A stretch of DNA of 64,000 bases. It comes from Carcharhinus longimanus. Taxonomy: Eukaryota. The stretch lies in contig JASCQW010000105.1 in NCBI GenBank assembly GCA_030264375.1, forward strand, positions 51,747,313 to 51,811,312. The letters run 5' to 3'. Below, piece by piece: positions 14,755-62,988 of the stretch. The notes under the pieces are model-generated. The model was not told where the DNA came from and did no database searches. It saw nothing but the letters and a program-made list of their open reading frames with translations. The position numbers were made by a program, and so were the translations under genes. How positions within the stretch are numbered: the first letter of the stretch is position 1; every line of letters starts with the position of its first letter.

Positions 14755-16025
14755 ATCTTATCTTTATGTAGCACCTTTAACAGAATGAAGGCACTTCACA
14801 GGAATGTTATAAAACAAAATATAACACTAGGCCATATAAAGGGATGTTAGGTGGTTAAAGAGGTAGGTTTTAAGAAGTGTTGTAAAGGAGGCAAGTTAAA
14901 GAGGTTTAGGGAGAGTATTCTAGAACTTGGGGGCTAGTCAACTATATGGCTACCAATGGTGGAGCAATTGTAATTTGAGAATTCACAAGAAGCCAGAATT
15001 AGAGAAGCGCAGTTGTCCCGGCTGGAGGATATTATAGGGATATAATATCCTCCAACCCACGAGGTGGGTGTGCCGGAGGATCATAAGATCAAATTTGACA
15101 CCAGGGTTGTGAGTATCAAACTTAAATCTCAGACTGTTGCCAATGGGAGAGGTTAAGTCCTGCAAGAAGTCTCACAACACCAGATTAAAGTCCAAAAGGT
15201 ATATTTGGTAGCAAACGCCACTAGCTTTCAGGGCTCTGCCTCTTCGTCGGGTGAGTGGGGAGTTCTGATCACAAACAGGGCACATAAAGACAAATACACA
15301 GTTTACAGAATACTGATTAGAATGCGAGACTTTACAGCTAATCAAGTCTTAAAGGTGCAGACAATGTGAATGGANNNNNNNNNNNNNNNNNNNNNNNNNN
15401 NNNNNNNNNNNNNNNNNNNNNNNNNNNNNNNNNNNNNNNNNNNNNNNNNNNNNNNNNNNNNNNNNNNNNNNNNNNNNNNNNNNNNNNNNNNNNNNNNNNN
15501 NNNNNNNNNNNNNNNNNNNNNNNNNNNNNNNNNNNNNNNNNNNNNNNNNNNNNNNNNNNNNNNNNNNNNNNNNNNNNNNNNNNNNNNNNNNNNNNNNNNN
15601 NNNNNNNNNNNNNNNNNNNNNNNNNNNNNNNNNNNNNNNNNNNNNNNNNNNNNNNNNNNNNNNNNNNNNNNNNNNNNNNNNNNNNNNNNNNNNNNNNNNN
15701 NNNNNNNNNNNNNNNNNNNNNNNNNNNNNNNNNNNNNNNNNNNNNNNNNNNNNNNNNNNNNNNNNNNNNNNNNNNNNNNNNNNNNNNNNNNNNNNNNNNN
15801 NNNNNNAAAGCTAGTGGCATTTGCTACCAAATAAACCTGTTGGACTTTAACCTGGTGTTGTGAGACTTCTTACTGTGCTTACCCCTGACCAACGCCAGCA
15901 TCTCCACATCAGAGATTAAGTCAGCAGCTAGGAATTGAGTTTGGAGTGAAGACTGAGAACAATGGCTTCAGTTGTGCTGGCATTTAATTGGAAGAAATTT
16001 CAGCTCATCCAGGACTGGATAACTA
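14755..16025 (-). mobile_element. L2-type LINE 3' region interrupted by a Penelope-like insertion
   Basis: Reverse L2 tail tatgtagcacctttaac; the L2-like sequence resumes after 15922. Confidence 0.55.
15160..15910. mobile_element. Penelope-like element with inverted terminal arms (pseudo-LTRs) flanking an N gap
   Basis: 15164-15228 is the near reverse complement of 15807-15871. It has the same 3' end (gcatctccacatc) as the 58895-59100 element. Near-perfect 12-bp TSD agaggttaagtc (15148-15159) / agagattaagtc (15911-15922). Confidence 0.78.
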
Positions 16026-55213: not shown

Positions 55214-56330
55214 AGTGGAGCATTGTGAGGTTATCTGTGGGCTTGCGGTACAGTGAGGTGCTAAGGTGACCATCCTTGATGGAGATGAATGTGTCCAAGA
55301 ATGCAAACGATTCTGGGGAGTAGGGCATGGTGAGTCTGATGGTGGGATGGAACTTGTTGATGTCATCATATCGTTGTTTCAGTGATTGTTCACCATGGGT
55401 CCAAAAAAAAAGAAAATGTCATCAATGTATTTAGTATATAGCATCGGTTGAAGGTCTGTGTGGTGAAGAAGTCTTGTTCAGGCCTGTGCATGAAGATGGT
55501 GGCATATTGAGGTGCAAATTTGGTCCCCATAGCTGTTCTGTGTGTCTGGATGAAGAACTGGTTGTTGAAGGTGAAGACATTTTGGTCCAGGATGAAGCAG
55601 ACGAGTTGTAAAATTGCATCTGGAAACTGGCATTGAGTGCTGAGGCAGTTGCAGCAATGCCAACTTCGTGGGGGAAGCTGGTGTAGAGTGCCGAGACATC
55701 CATTGTGACGAGGAGTGCTCCTGGTTCAAGTGCTCCATGTGTGCTGAGTTTCTGTAGGAAGTCCATAGCATTACAAGAAAAGCTGGGGGTTCTTTGTACA
55801 ATGGGTTTCAGGTTGCCCTCGACATAGCCGGAGAGGTTCTCACACAAGGTCCCATTGCCCGATATGACGGGATGGCCGGGCGTGTTTGCCTTGTGTATCT
55901 TCGGAAGGCAGTAGAGATCTCCAATGCGGGAAGAACACGGAAGGTGCTCTGAAGGTCCAGATCATAAGGTCTTGATCAGCCTGTTGAGTTGACGGGTGTG
56001 TTCTTTGGTCGGATCTGCGAGTAACTGTCTGTAGCGTTCCTTGTTGTTCAGTTGTCAGTACACTTCTTCGCAATAATCCATTCTGCTCGGTATGACAATG
56101 GCCCCTCCTTTGTCTGCTGGTTTGATGACAATGTTGCAGTTGCTCTTGAGAGCGTGGATGGTGTTGCGTTGTGCTTAGGTGATGTTCAGGGCTGTCTTGG
56201 GAGTGTGTTTGATGAATCTGGTGTTGACACACCTCCTGATGGCTTGGGCATACATGTCAAGTCAAGGGTAGCAGCCTTCAGGAGGAGTCCAATTGGACTC
56301 TTTCCTCTTCGGTTGCTGCACTACAGATCT
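55214..56330 (-). mobile_element. Penelope-like element reverse transcriptase relic (frameshifted)
   Basis: ORF 55431..55847 gives DFLQKL...LLVTMDVSALYTS; ORF 55062..55328 gives FLDTFISIKDGHLSTSLYRKPTD; NIVIKPADKGGAIVI lies near 56090-56135. All are PLE RT motifs. Confidence 0.9.
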
Positions 56331-56947: not shown

Positions 56948-57294
56948 CATAGAATCACTAGTGTAGGAGGAGACCATTTAGCCCACTGAGTCTGCACCAA
57001 CTATCTGACAGAGCGTATTACCCAGGCCCATCCCTCTGCCCCATTCCCTTAACCCTATACATTTAACCCATTAATCACCCAACCTACGCATCTAGGGACA
57101 CTAACGAGCAATTCAGCATGGCCAATCCATCAAACCTGCACATCTTTGGAGTGTGGGACGAAACCGGAATACCCAGGGGAAACGTATGTAGACACAGGAA
57201 GAATATGCAAACTCTACACAATCACCCAAAGGCAGAAGTAAACCCAGGTCCCTGGTGCTTGAGGCAGCAGTGTTAACTATTGTGCCACTGTGTC
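56948..57294 (-). mobile_element. HE1-like V-SINE
   Basis: Head, V domain and tail as in the other copies. Confidence 0.85.
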
Positions 57295-57554
57295 ATCTAA
57301 ATAACAAATTTCTAAATTTGAGAGCTGAGTTTTTCTCAATAATATTTTGTGGGTCAACATTGTTGCTGAACTTAATCTTATTCAGGTAAAGGGACAGCAA
57401 CTGTCACTGCATCGTTAAAAGTCAACAGACATTGTGCTACCCAGGTAGGCACCTTAGACATGGGTGCTTGTTGGAAATGAATCAATCTTGTAACTGCCCC
57501 CCCCACCCCCACTAATAGCGCTGTTTTAGTTATACTATTCAATGCAACACATAC

Positions 57555-57756
57555 GTGTCATAGACATTGAGGAGCCAGTTGAGACACATGTCCACACAGA
57601 GAGGCACATTGACTAGGTTACTGTGTTCCTGTTCCAGTCGATCGTAGATTGAAGTCAGGCAATTAATTATCTCCAAAATATCCATCAGTTGATCATTTTG
57701 CTTTAGGTTGTGCTGGTCAAAGGCCTCACAAGCACTTGGCAGAGAGAGAAGATCCA
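57555..57756 (-). CDS. DMD: Dystrophin exon 65 (202 nt), EF-hand region: [67 protein letters not shown]
   Basis: Lies within ORF 57539..57823(-). Boundaries cag|TGGATC and GACAC|gtatgt; 202 nt; near-identical to mammalian dystrophin. Confidence 0.97.
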
Positions 57757-58920
57757 CTGTGGAGAAATAGAACAAACACATTAAAATTATGTTTGAATTT
57801 TGGACAGGATTCCCAATAGCCAAATCAGTAAGATGGCATCACTTTGCTGCAAATCATCCTGCATATGATTACCTTGTAATACATTCCGAAGCAGTATAAA
57901 ACTATTCAGCATCAATCCTCCTCTCAACACTGCAAACCAGAAATAATTTATTCATCAATAAAACAAGTAGTGTTTGCGGAGGAAGCAGAAGCATCAGCAC
58001 ACGCGCCCCTTTCTTCACTTGAATAACATACAAACTTACAATACATAGGCTGAAAAATTTAAAGCAAAGATTTACTCTAATGCAGGCTGTGACTATCAGC
58101 AGCAAAAATCCCACTGCAGATACAGGTTGTGAGATTAAATAACAAAATACCAGTGCAGGTACAGACTATGAATCTTAGTAATAAAACCCAACCAGAAATT
58201 CAAATTATGAATATAAGCAACAAAATGGCACTGCATTGTCAAACTGTGAAATTTTATGAACTGATCAACCCTCGGTTCAATACCTTATCCCTCAAAAATA
58301 TGCATTCCTCCAACACAAATGACTGCTTATTCACTGTTGTAAACGCATGGTGCATTTCGGCAGTATCTTTGTTCTTGTTGTCACTAATTTGTTGCTGTCG
58401 CTATCGCTATATTCTGCTGAAGCACCCTATGGTACATTTTAGTAGGTTCGTAAACATGAAGATATGAATGATAATGGGATTGGTAACATCGTCACTGGTC
58501 ATGTCTACAGTCACAAAGCATTAATCTTTAAATGACCTTTATTTTTCAAAAAATAAGCTTGCTAAAGTTTGAGCTCTGGCAAGGAAAACGTAAAGGGGTA
58601 GAAAGTAGGCCTGATTTCCAGGTGACACATTGGGAGTTGTCTACCTTGGCTGCATAATTCCTAAATTTACACTGCACGCCTGCTGCCCCTCGCCTTCATT
58701 AACTGATGGAGGACTGCATCCCAGAATGGCCATGATGTATTGACCACTACACATGCACAACTCAAGTCTGCTATGATGCAGATGCACAAAACATCATGCA
58801 TATTGAGTTACAAATGTGTGTGCATCTGTTGGGGTGGGAGGAGCATATCACACCACAACCTCATGATATCTGAAACTATGCTGCACCTTTAATTCCAACA
58901 GGTTTATTTGGTAGTGAACG

Positions 58921-58957
58921 TCACTAGCTTTCGGAGCACTGCTCCTTCGTCAGGTGA
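58921..58957 (-). ncRNA. Minimal type I hammerhead ribozyme motif (PLE type), intact core
   Basis: Minus strand reads UCAC-CUGACGA-A-GGAGC-AGU-GCUCC-GAAA-GCUA-GUGA: stem I UCAC/GUGA, perfect stem II, palindromic AGCU stem III. Confidence 0.75.
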
Positions 58958-58970
58958 ATGGGGAGCCCAC

Positions 58971-59007
58971 TCACCTGATGAAGGAGCAGCGCTCTGAAAG
59001 CTAGTGG
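58971..59007 (+). ncRNA. Minimal type I hammerhead ribozyme motif (PLE type), slightly degenerate
   Basis: UCAC-CUGAUGA-A-GGAGC-AGC-GCUCU-GAAA-GCUA-GUGG, with a G-U pair at the base of stem II. Confidence 0.68.
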
Positions 59008-60312
59008 CATTTGCTACCAAATAAACCTGTCGGACTTTAACCTGGTGTTGTGAGACTTCTTACTGTGTTTAGCCCAGTCCAATGCCAGCATCTCCACATC
59101 ACCTTTAATTGCCAGACTTAGGAAGTGCACAAACCCAAAAAAACTCATGGTTCCTTATTTAAAAAATCTGACAGATTAATCTTTTTAATGCAGCATGTTA
59201 TGCTTTGCTTGAAAGGGTAGTGGAAACTGGCTCCGTGATATCTTTCTAGTGGTAACTGGATTAAAACTCGATGAGAAAAATGTGCAGGTCCAAGGGGATA
59301 GAATAGGGCAGTGGAACTAATTGGATATGTCGTTCAAGAGCCAGCACCAACATGATGGGCTGAATCAACTCCTATTGCATTCTAGTGACATGCCAACTAG
59401 TTACAGGAAGCAGCAGCTTAAGTTTAATATAAAGACAGTTTTAGGAACAACACATTCTACCTGAAAAAGTCCTCAACATAATGAAATGTTCCTATAAGTA
59501 ACCCTGGCACAAGGATTTGTTTGTTAACTGTTTCTTCCTGAAACACAGTAGTACGATAAGGTCAGTAAATTTTGAAATACAGCCAAAGTCTTATACAAGT
59601 TTGCAACAGCAGGTTAAAAAGTCTCAAGCTGAAACAAAGAAGTGGCAGGTTTAATTCACACCTGTTAAAAAAAAGGAACAGTAATATATTTGCACAGAAA
59701 ACAATGATCTTGAGTGACCTGCAAGTCTTTCTACTAACACATGTCACAGCGTATTAGCTAAATGATACATGTTCCTCTAAATGCACAGGAATCAAGGACA
59801 AGCCTTTGCAAAAGTCATTCTGATATGTATTTTGTTGCCAAGGTATTGGTTATTTTGTGTTCCTTTAACAGATATAAATTAGGAGCAACCTACTTCAAGT
59901 GAAACACATTATTTAATTAGTTGAGTCACCTTTACAAAGCTCCTCTTTCAAGGGGTCAACTACATAATTTGCAAGCAAACACAAATTTAACTATATCAAG
60001 TTGCATGTCTTGTTAGGCATCAGAATTCAACAAACTATTTGTTACAACTGCTCCCACAAGAGACTGATAAACCACAGTTCTCTTAATATCAATTTATTTG
60101 TGGAATTGCAAAGGTACAACCAGCACAACAGCACTTCTAGCTGTGGGATAACAAGCAATAGTGAGGACCCCTTGAGGAAAGTAATCAATAACAGCTAATT
60201 GATTTCTTCAAGCAGTTTAATTAGAGACAAAGCTCCAATCTAAATGGACCAAACTTTGTAAAGACATACACAACTAGTTCAGAATACATGCGTACTCCAA
60301 ACTGATATAACA

Positions 60313-60928
60313 GGCGGAATTTCCAAAAAAATGGCAAAATATCAGATTCCGACTGAGAACTAGCATGTTTCTCTTCAGAAACACAGTTAGGTTCGAGAGG
60401 TTGTGGTTTGCAATGTCACTCGGGCCCAAAAGAGATGGCAAGACCAGTTTCACAGAGATAGCAACCTAATTTGCAATTGCTCCCCCCTCACCACAGAAAT
60501 ATCAGGGGTCACTCTCCCACCCATGCTGTTGTCAACACGCACCCCTATCACACAAGGGAATTCCCCTCCCTGTTATAGGAGAGGGAACTCTCTGGCACTG
60601 CCCACCTCAGTGCACCTTGGCACTGCCAGGAGACNNNNNNNNNNNNNNNNNNNNNNNNNNNNNNNNNNNNNNNNNNNNNNNNNNNNNNNNNNNNNNNNNN
60701 NNNNNNNNNNNNNNNNNNNNNNNNNNNNNNNNNNNNNNNNNNNNNNNNNNNNNNNNNNNNNNNNNNNNNNNNNNNNNNNNNNNNNNNNNNNNNNNNNNNN
60801 NNCTGATAGGGATGGAGGGACGATTCTTCCTGTTTCAATGTGGAAGTGAAAGGTGACTTTGGTGTGATATTTTCTGCTCTCATTGCCAAACCCACCCAAC
60901 TCCTAAACAGGAGTGGAAAATCCCAGGC
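60313..60928. mobile_element. Non-autonomous DNA element with TIR-like ends, spanning a gap
   Basis: ggcggaatttcc ... ggaaaatcccaggc ends resemble the MITE family TIR. Confidence 0.45.
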
Positions 60929-62289
60929 TTGGACTTCATGGATAAGTACTTGTGATGCAATATTTATTCATGTTCACGAAATTGCCCAGAACACACTGTG
61001 GGCTTGTTGCTTGTGAGATAGACACAAGCCTCATTTGCTTAATTAAGACTCTTGACATACAAATCGTCCACAAGTATCATCTTGCTCGCAACGTTGATCA
61101 GCCTGCTACGCTAAACTTTATTGATTAATTATGTAAAAAGTTTTTAATCCCTTTAAGGCTACCAACAGATAAACTCTTTCTACAAATGAGTACTGAGTCT
61201 TGTTATACTGTAGTTATTGACTATGGGTAATACACTATGGTGTAACCTCAGCACGTTGAAACTTAAATTGTCAAATCTCATCATTTAAGCTGATGAATAA
61301 TGGCCACTTCAACGTAATGGAGGATAGCTAGTATAAATGAAACTGTTCTCCTGAAAAGAGTCAATGCACTCAGGAGGGAGATAATTTGGTACGGTTTAGA
61401 AAAAACATTCCATCGCTGACATTGACCTCAACTGAGAAATGCATTCAAACCAAACTGCAATTACCAAAATTGTTTTTGCATCAGCTTTTAACAGCCACCA
61501 CATCATGACAAATTTTTTGTAGCAACCGTGGAGCACCGTAGTTTTATGGATAAATAACTGTTCTAATTTAGCTAGAAAAACTTGATTAATGGTTGCTGTA
61601 AGATCAGAAGAAGTGCTATGATTTTTGCGAAGAGAAATCTGTAAATACTGGAAATTGCAGTTGATCTGTCCACATCTTGGATAAAAGCCCTTTATCCATA
61701 CTCCCAAACCAATGACAAAAGGTCTCTTCTGGAAGCATTAGCCATACTTTTGTCTTTACAAATGCACATGGGCCACCTGAGTATTTGCAACATTTTCTAC
61801 TTGTATTTTTGAGAAATAGTAGTCAGCGTACAATATTTGGAGTGACCTTGGTTCAGTGATAACTTTCCTGCCTCTTAGAGTGCAGAGAGAAGGGGCTGGA
61901 TTTTATGGCCTCTCTTGTCCCAAAACCGTAAAATCCTGTCCGAGATCAGTTGACCTTTCCACGCTCCGCCCCACGCCTGTTCCAATTCCCATGGCGGGCA
62001 GGCGTGATCTCTGAATACTGGGTTGACATCCAGTGAGCTACTAAAAGGGAGCCAAGAGCTCTTTCTCCCTATTGTAGCCTTGATAAACAGGATTCCAATC
62101 TCTGCATCCTGAATTGACATTCCATTTGTTCAACGTGAGTGGTGGCATCTCCATTCCTCCCCCATCAGATCTAGCCTATTTTCCTGGTATGGGCTGTGAG
62201 TCAGCCCAAAAATCTGACCACATAAAAGATCTTTGTTAGGAAATAGCCCAGAACATGATCTGCTGGAAGCAGTATTGGCAGACTCAGAA

Positions 62290-62913: not shown

Positions 62914-62988
62914 AGCAAAGAGCTTTCTGCAGTCTTCGTAGCTTCATGGCTGTTCTGTACGCAGAAAACCTTACATTATTTAGGTCGG
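62914..62988 (-). CDS. DMD: Dystrophin exon equivalent to human exon 64 (75 nt): (A)[24 protein letters not shown]
   Basis: Reverse complement reads cag|CCGACCTAAATAATGTAAGG...GCTCTTTGCT|gtaagt. Size equals the 75-nt exon 64. AMKLRR is the dystrophin form (utrophin has AIKIRR). Confidence 0.96.

Follow-up and report, generated by a model that had tools for sequence, protein, structure and literature searches.

A head-to-head pair of Penelope-like terminal-repeat ends with hammerhead motifs in a dystrophin intron of Carcharhinus longimanus

Background

As far as the available text of the relevant reports goes, an inverted tail-less terminal repeat (pLTR), a tail and a target duplication are typical of insertions of Penelope-like elements (PMC3846280, PMC8557442, PMC8969392). 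Both the head-to-head layout and pairs of hammerheads on opposite strands have already been published (PMC3846280, PMC4209133, PMC8557442). A close counterpart of the insertion considered here is Pen2a_Av of Adineta vaga (PMC3846280; scheme in PMC8557442), which, in the parts of these accounts that describe it, likewise has a head-to-head inverted, truncated pLTR without the 30-40-bp tail, a tailed direct pLTR, an 8-15-bp duplication, a pLTR that runs into the ORF start and a TATA-like motif readable both ways. The copy in the dystrophin intron differs in having no ORF between its arms, in an inverted arm ~25 nt shorter than usual and in belonging to a family of tens of thousands of copies.

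Three further systems bear on the comparison. The minimal hammerheads of Schistosoma, in the portion of their description available, are of type I, lack helix III, carry an extra base between positions 9 and 10.1, a G10.1-C11.1 pair and a palindromic 15.2-16.2, and have a short helix I, all of which is found here as well; stem II has 5 bp in the dystrophin copy versus 7-8 bp in Schistosoma, the two cores lie ~20 nt apart here, and the motif of the dystrophin copy is known from sequence. PAc, an element of Anolis carolinensis (PMC11167929), has two 3' termini that bound the tail, a hammerhead upstream and insertion from uncleaved RNA, as here; its ORF starts inside the hammerhead and its start sites lie >100 nt into the ORF, whereas here the tail stops at the ATG. 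Finally, the non-LTR retrozymes, in the available part of their report (bioRxiv 10.64898/2026.07.22.740005), are also non-coding, carry a type I hammerhead and derive from Penelope-like pLTRs, but they are head-to-tail tandem units with ribozymes on the same strand, in contrast to the single head-to-head unit with a unique junction described below. A search by title and abstract, outside Repbase and subscription journals, returned no report on the family described below or on twin priming in Penelope-like elements.

In this work, we analyzed a stretch of 64,000 nt of the C. longimanus genome (contig JASCQW010000105.1; hereafter the window), in which a preliminary description had noted a palindrome with two hammerheads inside dystrophin. 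We conclude that this palindrome very probably goes back to a single ancient insertion without coding sequence, composed of two terminal-repeat ends, joined head to head, of an abundant Penelope-like retroelement that bears an endonuclease. It likely arose in one integration event, with reverse transcription primed from both cut strands of the target, and its hammerheads are likely inactive passengers. What is new beyond the published layout is a pile-up of arm 5' ends at 127-146 nt from the element 3' end, which was replicated in random DNA.

Results and discussion

Structure and age of the insertion

The palindrome is imperfect and two-armed, as previously described, but measures 153 bp instead of ~140 nt; its arms (58888-58962 and 58966-59040) are 75 nt each, 85% complementary and separated by a loop of 3 nt. 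RNA folding confirmed a long hairpin on both strands (-126/-130 kcal/mol, z ~ -15), and for each strand 0 of 200 shuffles reached so low a value. The single-copy 3' extension is present and 61 nt long, although ~35 nt of it are simply the family's normal tail. The target duplication (cacctttaatt) is exact and bounds the element at both ends, and the first two bases of its right copy are also the last two bases of the Penelope insertion. The 5' ends of the arms lie 137 and 139 nt from the element 3' end, while the inverted arm stops ~60 nt short of that end. With an inverted tail-less arm, a tailed arm and no ORF between them, the unit agrees with the inverted, truncated, ORF-less insertion that had been proposed. 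The features are collected in Table 1.

Table 1 Features of the insertion and of the neighboring dystrophin exons (positions in the window)
Feature	Position	Strand	Remarks
Downstream dystrophin exon	57555-57756	-	202 bp; 1.1 kb from the element; match to dystrophin structure, E 7e-36
Left target-site duplication	58884..58894	+	11 nt; microhomology, its last bases being also part of the inverted arm's outer end
Inverted tail-less pLTR arm	58888..58965	-	spans positions 139 to ~59-64 from the element 3' end
AATAAA of inverted arm	58903..58908	-	dystrophin sense orientation, within the hairpin
Minimal type I hammerhead motif, dystrophin sense strand	58921..58957	-	stem I 4 bp, CUGACGA, bulged A, 5-bp stem II, GAAA-GC-UA, stem III absent; predicted cut after 58925
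Head-to-head junction	58953..58975	.	no untemplated gap; genome-unique
Forward pLTR arm	58966..59101	+	last 136 nt of the element
Candidate 5' splice donor AG/GTGAGT	58969..58976	-	consensus-like; antisense of hammerhead stem I, dystrophin sense orientation
Minimal hammerhead motif, antisense strand	58971..59007	+	closing pair of stem II now G.U by decay; cleavage predicted after 59003
AATAAA of forward arm	59020..59025	+	
Penelope tail	59066..59101	+	~35 nt, bounded by the two 3' termini of the family; in tandem copies stops at the ORF start codon
Right target-site duplication	59100..59110	+	11 nt
Upstream dystrophin exon	62914-62988	-	75 bp

The intronic location also holds, since the element is flanked by two minus-strand exons, the 202-bp one of which matches dystrophin structures; by human dystrophin exon sizes, we take them to be exons 64 (75 bp) and 65 (202 bp) and the intron to be intron 64. 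Contigs of a related organism (X6) enter the element from both flanks, and the insertion is therefore old and shared. In an unrelated sequencing run, both insertion ends are joined to their flanks, and the runs did not reveal an empty site.

Contigs bridging the palindrome centre were found in none of four sequencing runs, and the centre is known from one assembly only. This gives some room to another history, in which a long inverted insertion later lost its middle or was collapsed by the assembler, particularly as long inverted copies do exist, often on assembly gaps (an arm runs into a gap in 26 of the 90 loci surveyed below; another example lies at 15151-15911 of the window). Nevertheless, solo arms without any partner share the end positions 134-144, and a 15% difference between the two arms offers an assembler little reason to merge them. 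We therefore regard deletion or collapse as quite improbable, and a short unit inserted as such is retained here.

The parent family and the usual shape of its copies

The arm is the pLTR of a Penelope-like retroelement with reverse transcriptase (RT) and GIY-YIG endonuclease (EN), which bears out the suggested Penelope origin. Among loci chosen for RT/EN sequence, many have the arm next to RT and endonuclease fragments (e.g., L146, L130 and L163). Pfam RVT_1 was matched in L163 (E 4e-11) with the arm downstream, linking RT to the repeat; GIY-YIG (PF01541) was matched in L143 at E 2e-4, with 22.0 bits against a cut-off of 22.6, a clear match being obtained in 1 of 4 fragments, and E was below 0.01 in 3 of the 6 RT/EN fragments. 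YIDD, a CxxxxCxxC linker and GIY-YIG-type motifs are visible in the translations; the linker, situated between RT and EN, can be read in L139 and is degenerate in L130, L142 and L146. The parent is an endonuclease-bearing (EN+) element and probably belongs to the Neptune type (Neptune/Nematis), because the linker is a feature of that type (PMC8557442); PAc, by contrast, is a Poseidon.

In L152, the pLTR is followed by the ORF, and the outer 3' end of the element (L152:2627-2800) coincides with the A of the start codon (ATG) of this ORF, while L146, L134, L136 and L142 are inverted units. Many family copies include a few extra bases of the ORF start. A gap-free frame of ≥350 aa, as expected of an intact parent ORF, was absent from the 44 RT- or EN-selected loci, and the long "open frames" considered as parent ORFs were rejected as mostly N gaps. 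The window itself contains a broken RT remnant of the family on the minus strand (55220-56290), in the next intron, which stops at an assembly gap. No terminal repeat was found beside it, and its two broken fragments gave no Pfam match; its identity comes from DNA links instead.

The family is abundant. The element matches 3,943 candidate loci genome-wide, 40 of which were scored, and a degenerate 28-nt tail pattern has 14,166 exact matches in the genome (control, 0). In eight arbitrarily chosen blocks of 100 kb each (together 800 kb of random DNA, including 101 kb of N), 21 tailed arms were present, or ~30 per Mb of non-N sequence, which extrapolates to ~70,000 copies genome-wide.

The shape of the copies was surveyed in the first 91 of 100 tail matches listed (90 loci), picked regardless of junction. 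An adjacent inverted arm was present in 43 of the 64 resolved loci and undetected in 21, among which very short arms can escape (e.g., L068). Its outer end lies 24-45 nt from the element 3' end in 35 of the 39 arms uncut by gaps, so the 30-40-bp tail is one-sided; in the random blocks, a tailed arm was likewise combined with a tail-less one in 9 of 11 terminal pairs (one internal pair was dropped). Target duplications accompany 22/38 copies versus 23/1482 swapped-pair controls, and peaks of loose ends at 59064-59067 and 59101 in four sequencing runs correspond to the family's two 3' termini. Arm lengths are graded, from ~35 nt to over 700 nt, and short double-hammerhead units make up 8 of the 43 inverted copies, with 4 more units in the 800 kb of random DNA. 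An inverted tail-less arm joined to a tailed arm is thus the family's usual insertion shape at all sizes. The dystrophin unit is a common form of it and not the "extreme" truncation once supposed, as arms of such length are the commonest class of family copies.

A few head-to-head units depart from this shape: L072 (G000:C1:8755828-8756009) and L219 have a tail on both arms, and both arms are tail-less in L227 and in second copies within L055 and L082.

Palindrome centres and the question of a self-propagating unit

Do the short palindromes move as units? A strict pattern recovered at least 776 pairs of head-to-head hammerheads whose centre measures ≤30 nt, and this number, the four short copies in random DNA and the clustering of arm lengths would all be expected of an ORF-less double-hammerhead family that propagates itself in a retrozyme- or SINE-like manner. 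A self-propagating non-autonomous family was one of two possibilities named in the preliminary description. The centres tell against it. The junction of the dystrophin copy matches itself alone genome-wide, the very observation that the same description had set against an independent family, and no other examined family locus has this centre within 3 mismatches. Among the first 50 of the 776 pairs, inspected by eye, nearly all centres differ. Moreover, arm lengths form a continuum, tandem units are absent at the locus, and the motifs lie on opposite strands. We consider self-propagation of the palindrome very unlikely; the locus is not a non-LTR retrozyme, and an insertion derived from the parent element is the preferred reading.

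Stem I in antisense resembles a splice donor, and the motif has a CAG upstream of it; the spread of spliced palindromes was therefore also tested, and rejected. The predicted junction occurs only 9 times, 8 of them in the Penelope-like family, where either arm may have the tail and the copies belong to different subfamilies, a recurrence that fits repeated independent joining and further weakens the idea of a mobile unit. A few short microhomology joins recur among the first 50 of the 776 centres.

Several of these 50 centres contain short repeated or re-inverted pieces of the arms, as if the growing strand had jumped more than once before joining.

Formation of the inverted arm

From the positions of the ends, we infer a route by twin priming and run-off. 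The element's protein would make staggered cuts in the target, 11 nt apart. One target strand would prime at the outer start site, so that the tail is kept, and the other at a more internal position, which in the dystrophin copy lies ~25 nt deeper than in most copies and has a short microhomology. Synthesis of both cDNAs would then end a little upstream of the hammerhead, most probably at the RNA 5' end, and the two cDNA ends would be joined head to head. A precedent is provided by the anole element, which in vitro cuts both target strands and extends them from two RNA sites on either side of the tail, needs the ORF start for binding and uses uncleaved RNA (PMC11167929). Target homology at priming is reported to be absent in that system, which differs from the frequent overlap between duplication and element end seen here.

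In many copies, target duplications share 2-6 matching bases with the element ends (by eye; L050, L053, L061, L066, L070, L089 and others), which suggests microhomology at priming in vivo.

The main competitor is a fold-back, in which one cDNA snapped back and was copied, or an antisense template primed itself; self-priming on an antisense template is the route favored for rotifer elements in the available part of PMC3846280. Partner arms do resemble each other, being closer to one another than to other copies (0.158 vs 0.197; 17/25 pairs, p 0.0015), and in 13 of 55 head-to-head pairs the two arms reach equally far to within 5 nt, which is also true of the dystrophin copy (137/139). However, the tail-less arm is the longer one in 29 of the 55 pairs and the tailed arm in 13, and because the tail-less arm so often reaches further upstream, a simple fold-back of one tailed cDNA is insufficient. 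In addition, solo and paired arms end at the same place, and both strands were extended in vitro (PMC11167929). The excess of longer tail-less arms, the likeness of partner arms, which also accords with joint synthesis, and the extension of both strands in the anole system make twin priming by one complex the most likely route, with self-priming as a rival that is less probable but deserves to be taken seriously.

Pile-up of arm 5' ends

Where do the arms stop? Their 5' ends crowd 127-146 nt from the element 3' end, shortly upstream of the catalytic core. Among the survey loci, 30 of 55 arms at risk end in this bin, which was chosen post hoc, versus 54 of 297 in neighboring bins (p 6e-8); in random DNA, with the bin fixed beforehand, the figures are 14/19 versus 14/94 (p 8e-7), both p-values being generous because paired arms are not independent. 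In raw counts (n=141), 44 ends fall into the 20-nt bin and 9 and 4 into the flanking bins, and a bias against long arms caused by gaps cannot produce such a contrast. The pile-up remains when unaligned bases are added to the paired arms (33 vs 19), and both subfamily groups show it.

The mode of the arm ends is at 130-134, and a TATA-like motif starts at 163. A distance of ~30 nt between the two corresponds to the usual spacing of a TATA motif and its start site. The pile-up is likely a product of reverse transcriptase running off the transcript 5' end, with both target strands primed, as judged from end positions. A predicted hairpin lies just upstream in some copies and could stall reverse transcription instead, a second small peak is present at 143-144, and some arms run further. 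A further point against a TATA-based start is that Drosophila Penelope has a TATA-less internal promoter, according to the part of PMC2377424 available. Two other sources of the ends were tried and rejected. Run-off at the ribozyme cut site (position 98) would concentrate ends there, yet 8 of 128 fall at 95-101 without a clear peak, and a spliced template ending at the CAG acceptor is not matched by the solo arms ending at 143-144, which by eye have no common upstream exon.

Tentatively, and as a possibility that we would not yet call the probable one, the thousands of double-hammerhead palindromes in the genome may be the modal product of concerted twin priming: the protein would bind the pLTR-ORF junction at the transcript's front, each cut strand would prime at one of two start sites, and both cDNAs would run off the RNA 5' end ~30 nt below the TATA-like motif, upstream of an uncleaved hammerhead. 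The stub ends give retroelement biology a testable model of the origin of inverted pLTRs and of the role of the hammerhead, combining twin priming, run-off at the transcript start and uncleaved RNA. If concerted twin priming is true, the genome holds a base-resolution map of transcription start and of Penelope second-strand synthesis.

Hammerhead motifs and the dystrophin transcript

Two minimal hammerhead motifs, one per strand, were confirmed. CUGANGA-A-5-bp stem II-GAAA-GCUA occurs on the plus strand at 58975-59003, where G.U closes stem II, and on the minus strand at 58953-58925 with a perfect stem II, so the better-preserved motif is on the dystrophin sense strand, as had been stated. A 4-bp stem I is possible in both arms, and both have the core, stems I and II, the palindromic 15.2-16.2 and no helix III, which agrees with type I minimal hammerheads in a pLTR. 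A loose hammerhead pattern has 6 matches in the whole window, two of which are the palindrome motifs. In the Rfam scan proposed as a check, positions 57000-61000 matched none of the hammerhead models at E≤10, and the identification as ribozymes is accordingly based on the motif instead of a covariance model; matches to miRNA hairpin models, the only ones obtained, were discarded as generic.

Are the motifs active? Compared with the hairpin, the hammerhead fold of the dystrophin strand is less favorable by 53 kcal/mol, and the probability of the hammerhead stems is near zero. During transcription of the dystrophin pre-mRNA, the antisense arm would be made first and would lock the sense motif in the 75-bp hairpin, and cleavage would not be expected. 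A dimer in cis is impossible because one RNA has a single sense motif, the other being on the opposite strand; cofolding of two arms gave an alternative intermolecular stem II and no active dimer. Burial of the sense motif, as first suggested, is thus predicted, but the accompanying idea that it protects the dystrophin pre-mRNA is superfluous, since a lone minimal hammerhead did not cleave in the work reported in PMC4209133, the motifs lie on opposite strands and the cores decay in sister copies. In the available part of PMC4209133, dimers cleave at a low level, and opposite-strand hammerhead pairs, 100-700 bp apart, come from truncated elements.

The forward arm departs from the majority of its sisters at 7 of 135 nt, with CpG transitions at 5 of these, and the inverted arm at 7 of 77 nt; 56 sister arms differ from the majority by 7.6% on average. 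All 11 core bases are intact in only 27 of 54 sister arms, and CpG core bases are changed in 23 of 112 cells. The motifs thus decay as neutral DNA does and are likely inert passengers. A point against this is that non-CpG core changes are fewer, at 12/499 (2.4%), than changes in downstream bases, at 160/2971 (5.4%), but the sisters were chosen by their likeness to the dystrophin copy.

One could still imagine that the host has retained a regulatory ribozyme or hairpin on the dystrophin pre-mRNA, given an intact core on the sense strand, both insertion ends in the contigs of the related organism (X6) and a donor-like motif and AATAAA in dystrophin sense orientation. Against this, the divergence of the arms (5% and 9%) is inside the range of the sisters, an intact core survives in half of the sister arms as a matter of chance and age, and the motif is without stem III and buried in a hairpin. 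Host retention therefore appears highly improbable, and the reading as an inert repeat end is kept. For dystrophin, the insertion is probably without consequence, being a single decaying repeat end among tens of thousands, and passive ends of this kind dominate genome-wide hammerhead counts in such animals.

Two side observations concern splicing signals and the neighboring sequence. Stem I in antisense reads CAG/GTGAGT in the dystrophin copy and CAG/GTAAGT in L094 and L146, both consensus-like; every palindromic copy would accordingly carry a donor and AATAAA on both strands. At 15151-15911, the window contains a second family copy in a dystrophin intron, which consists of a long inverted tail-less arm, a 432-N gap and a tailed arm and has an imperfect target duplication of ~12 nt.
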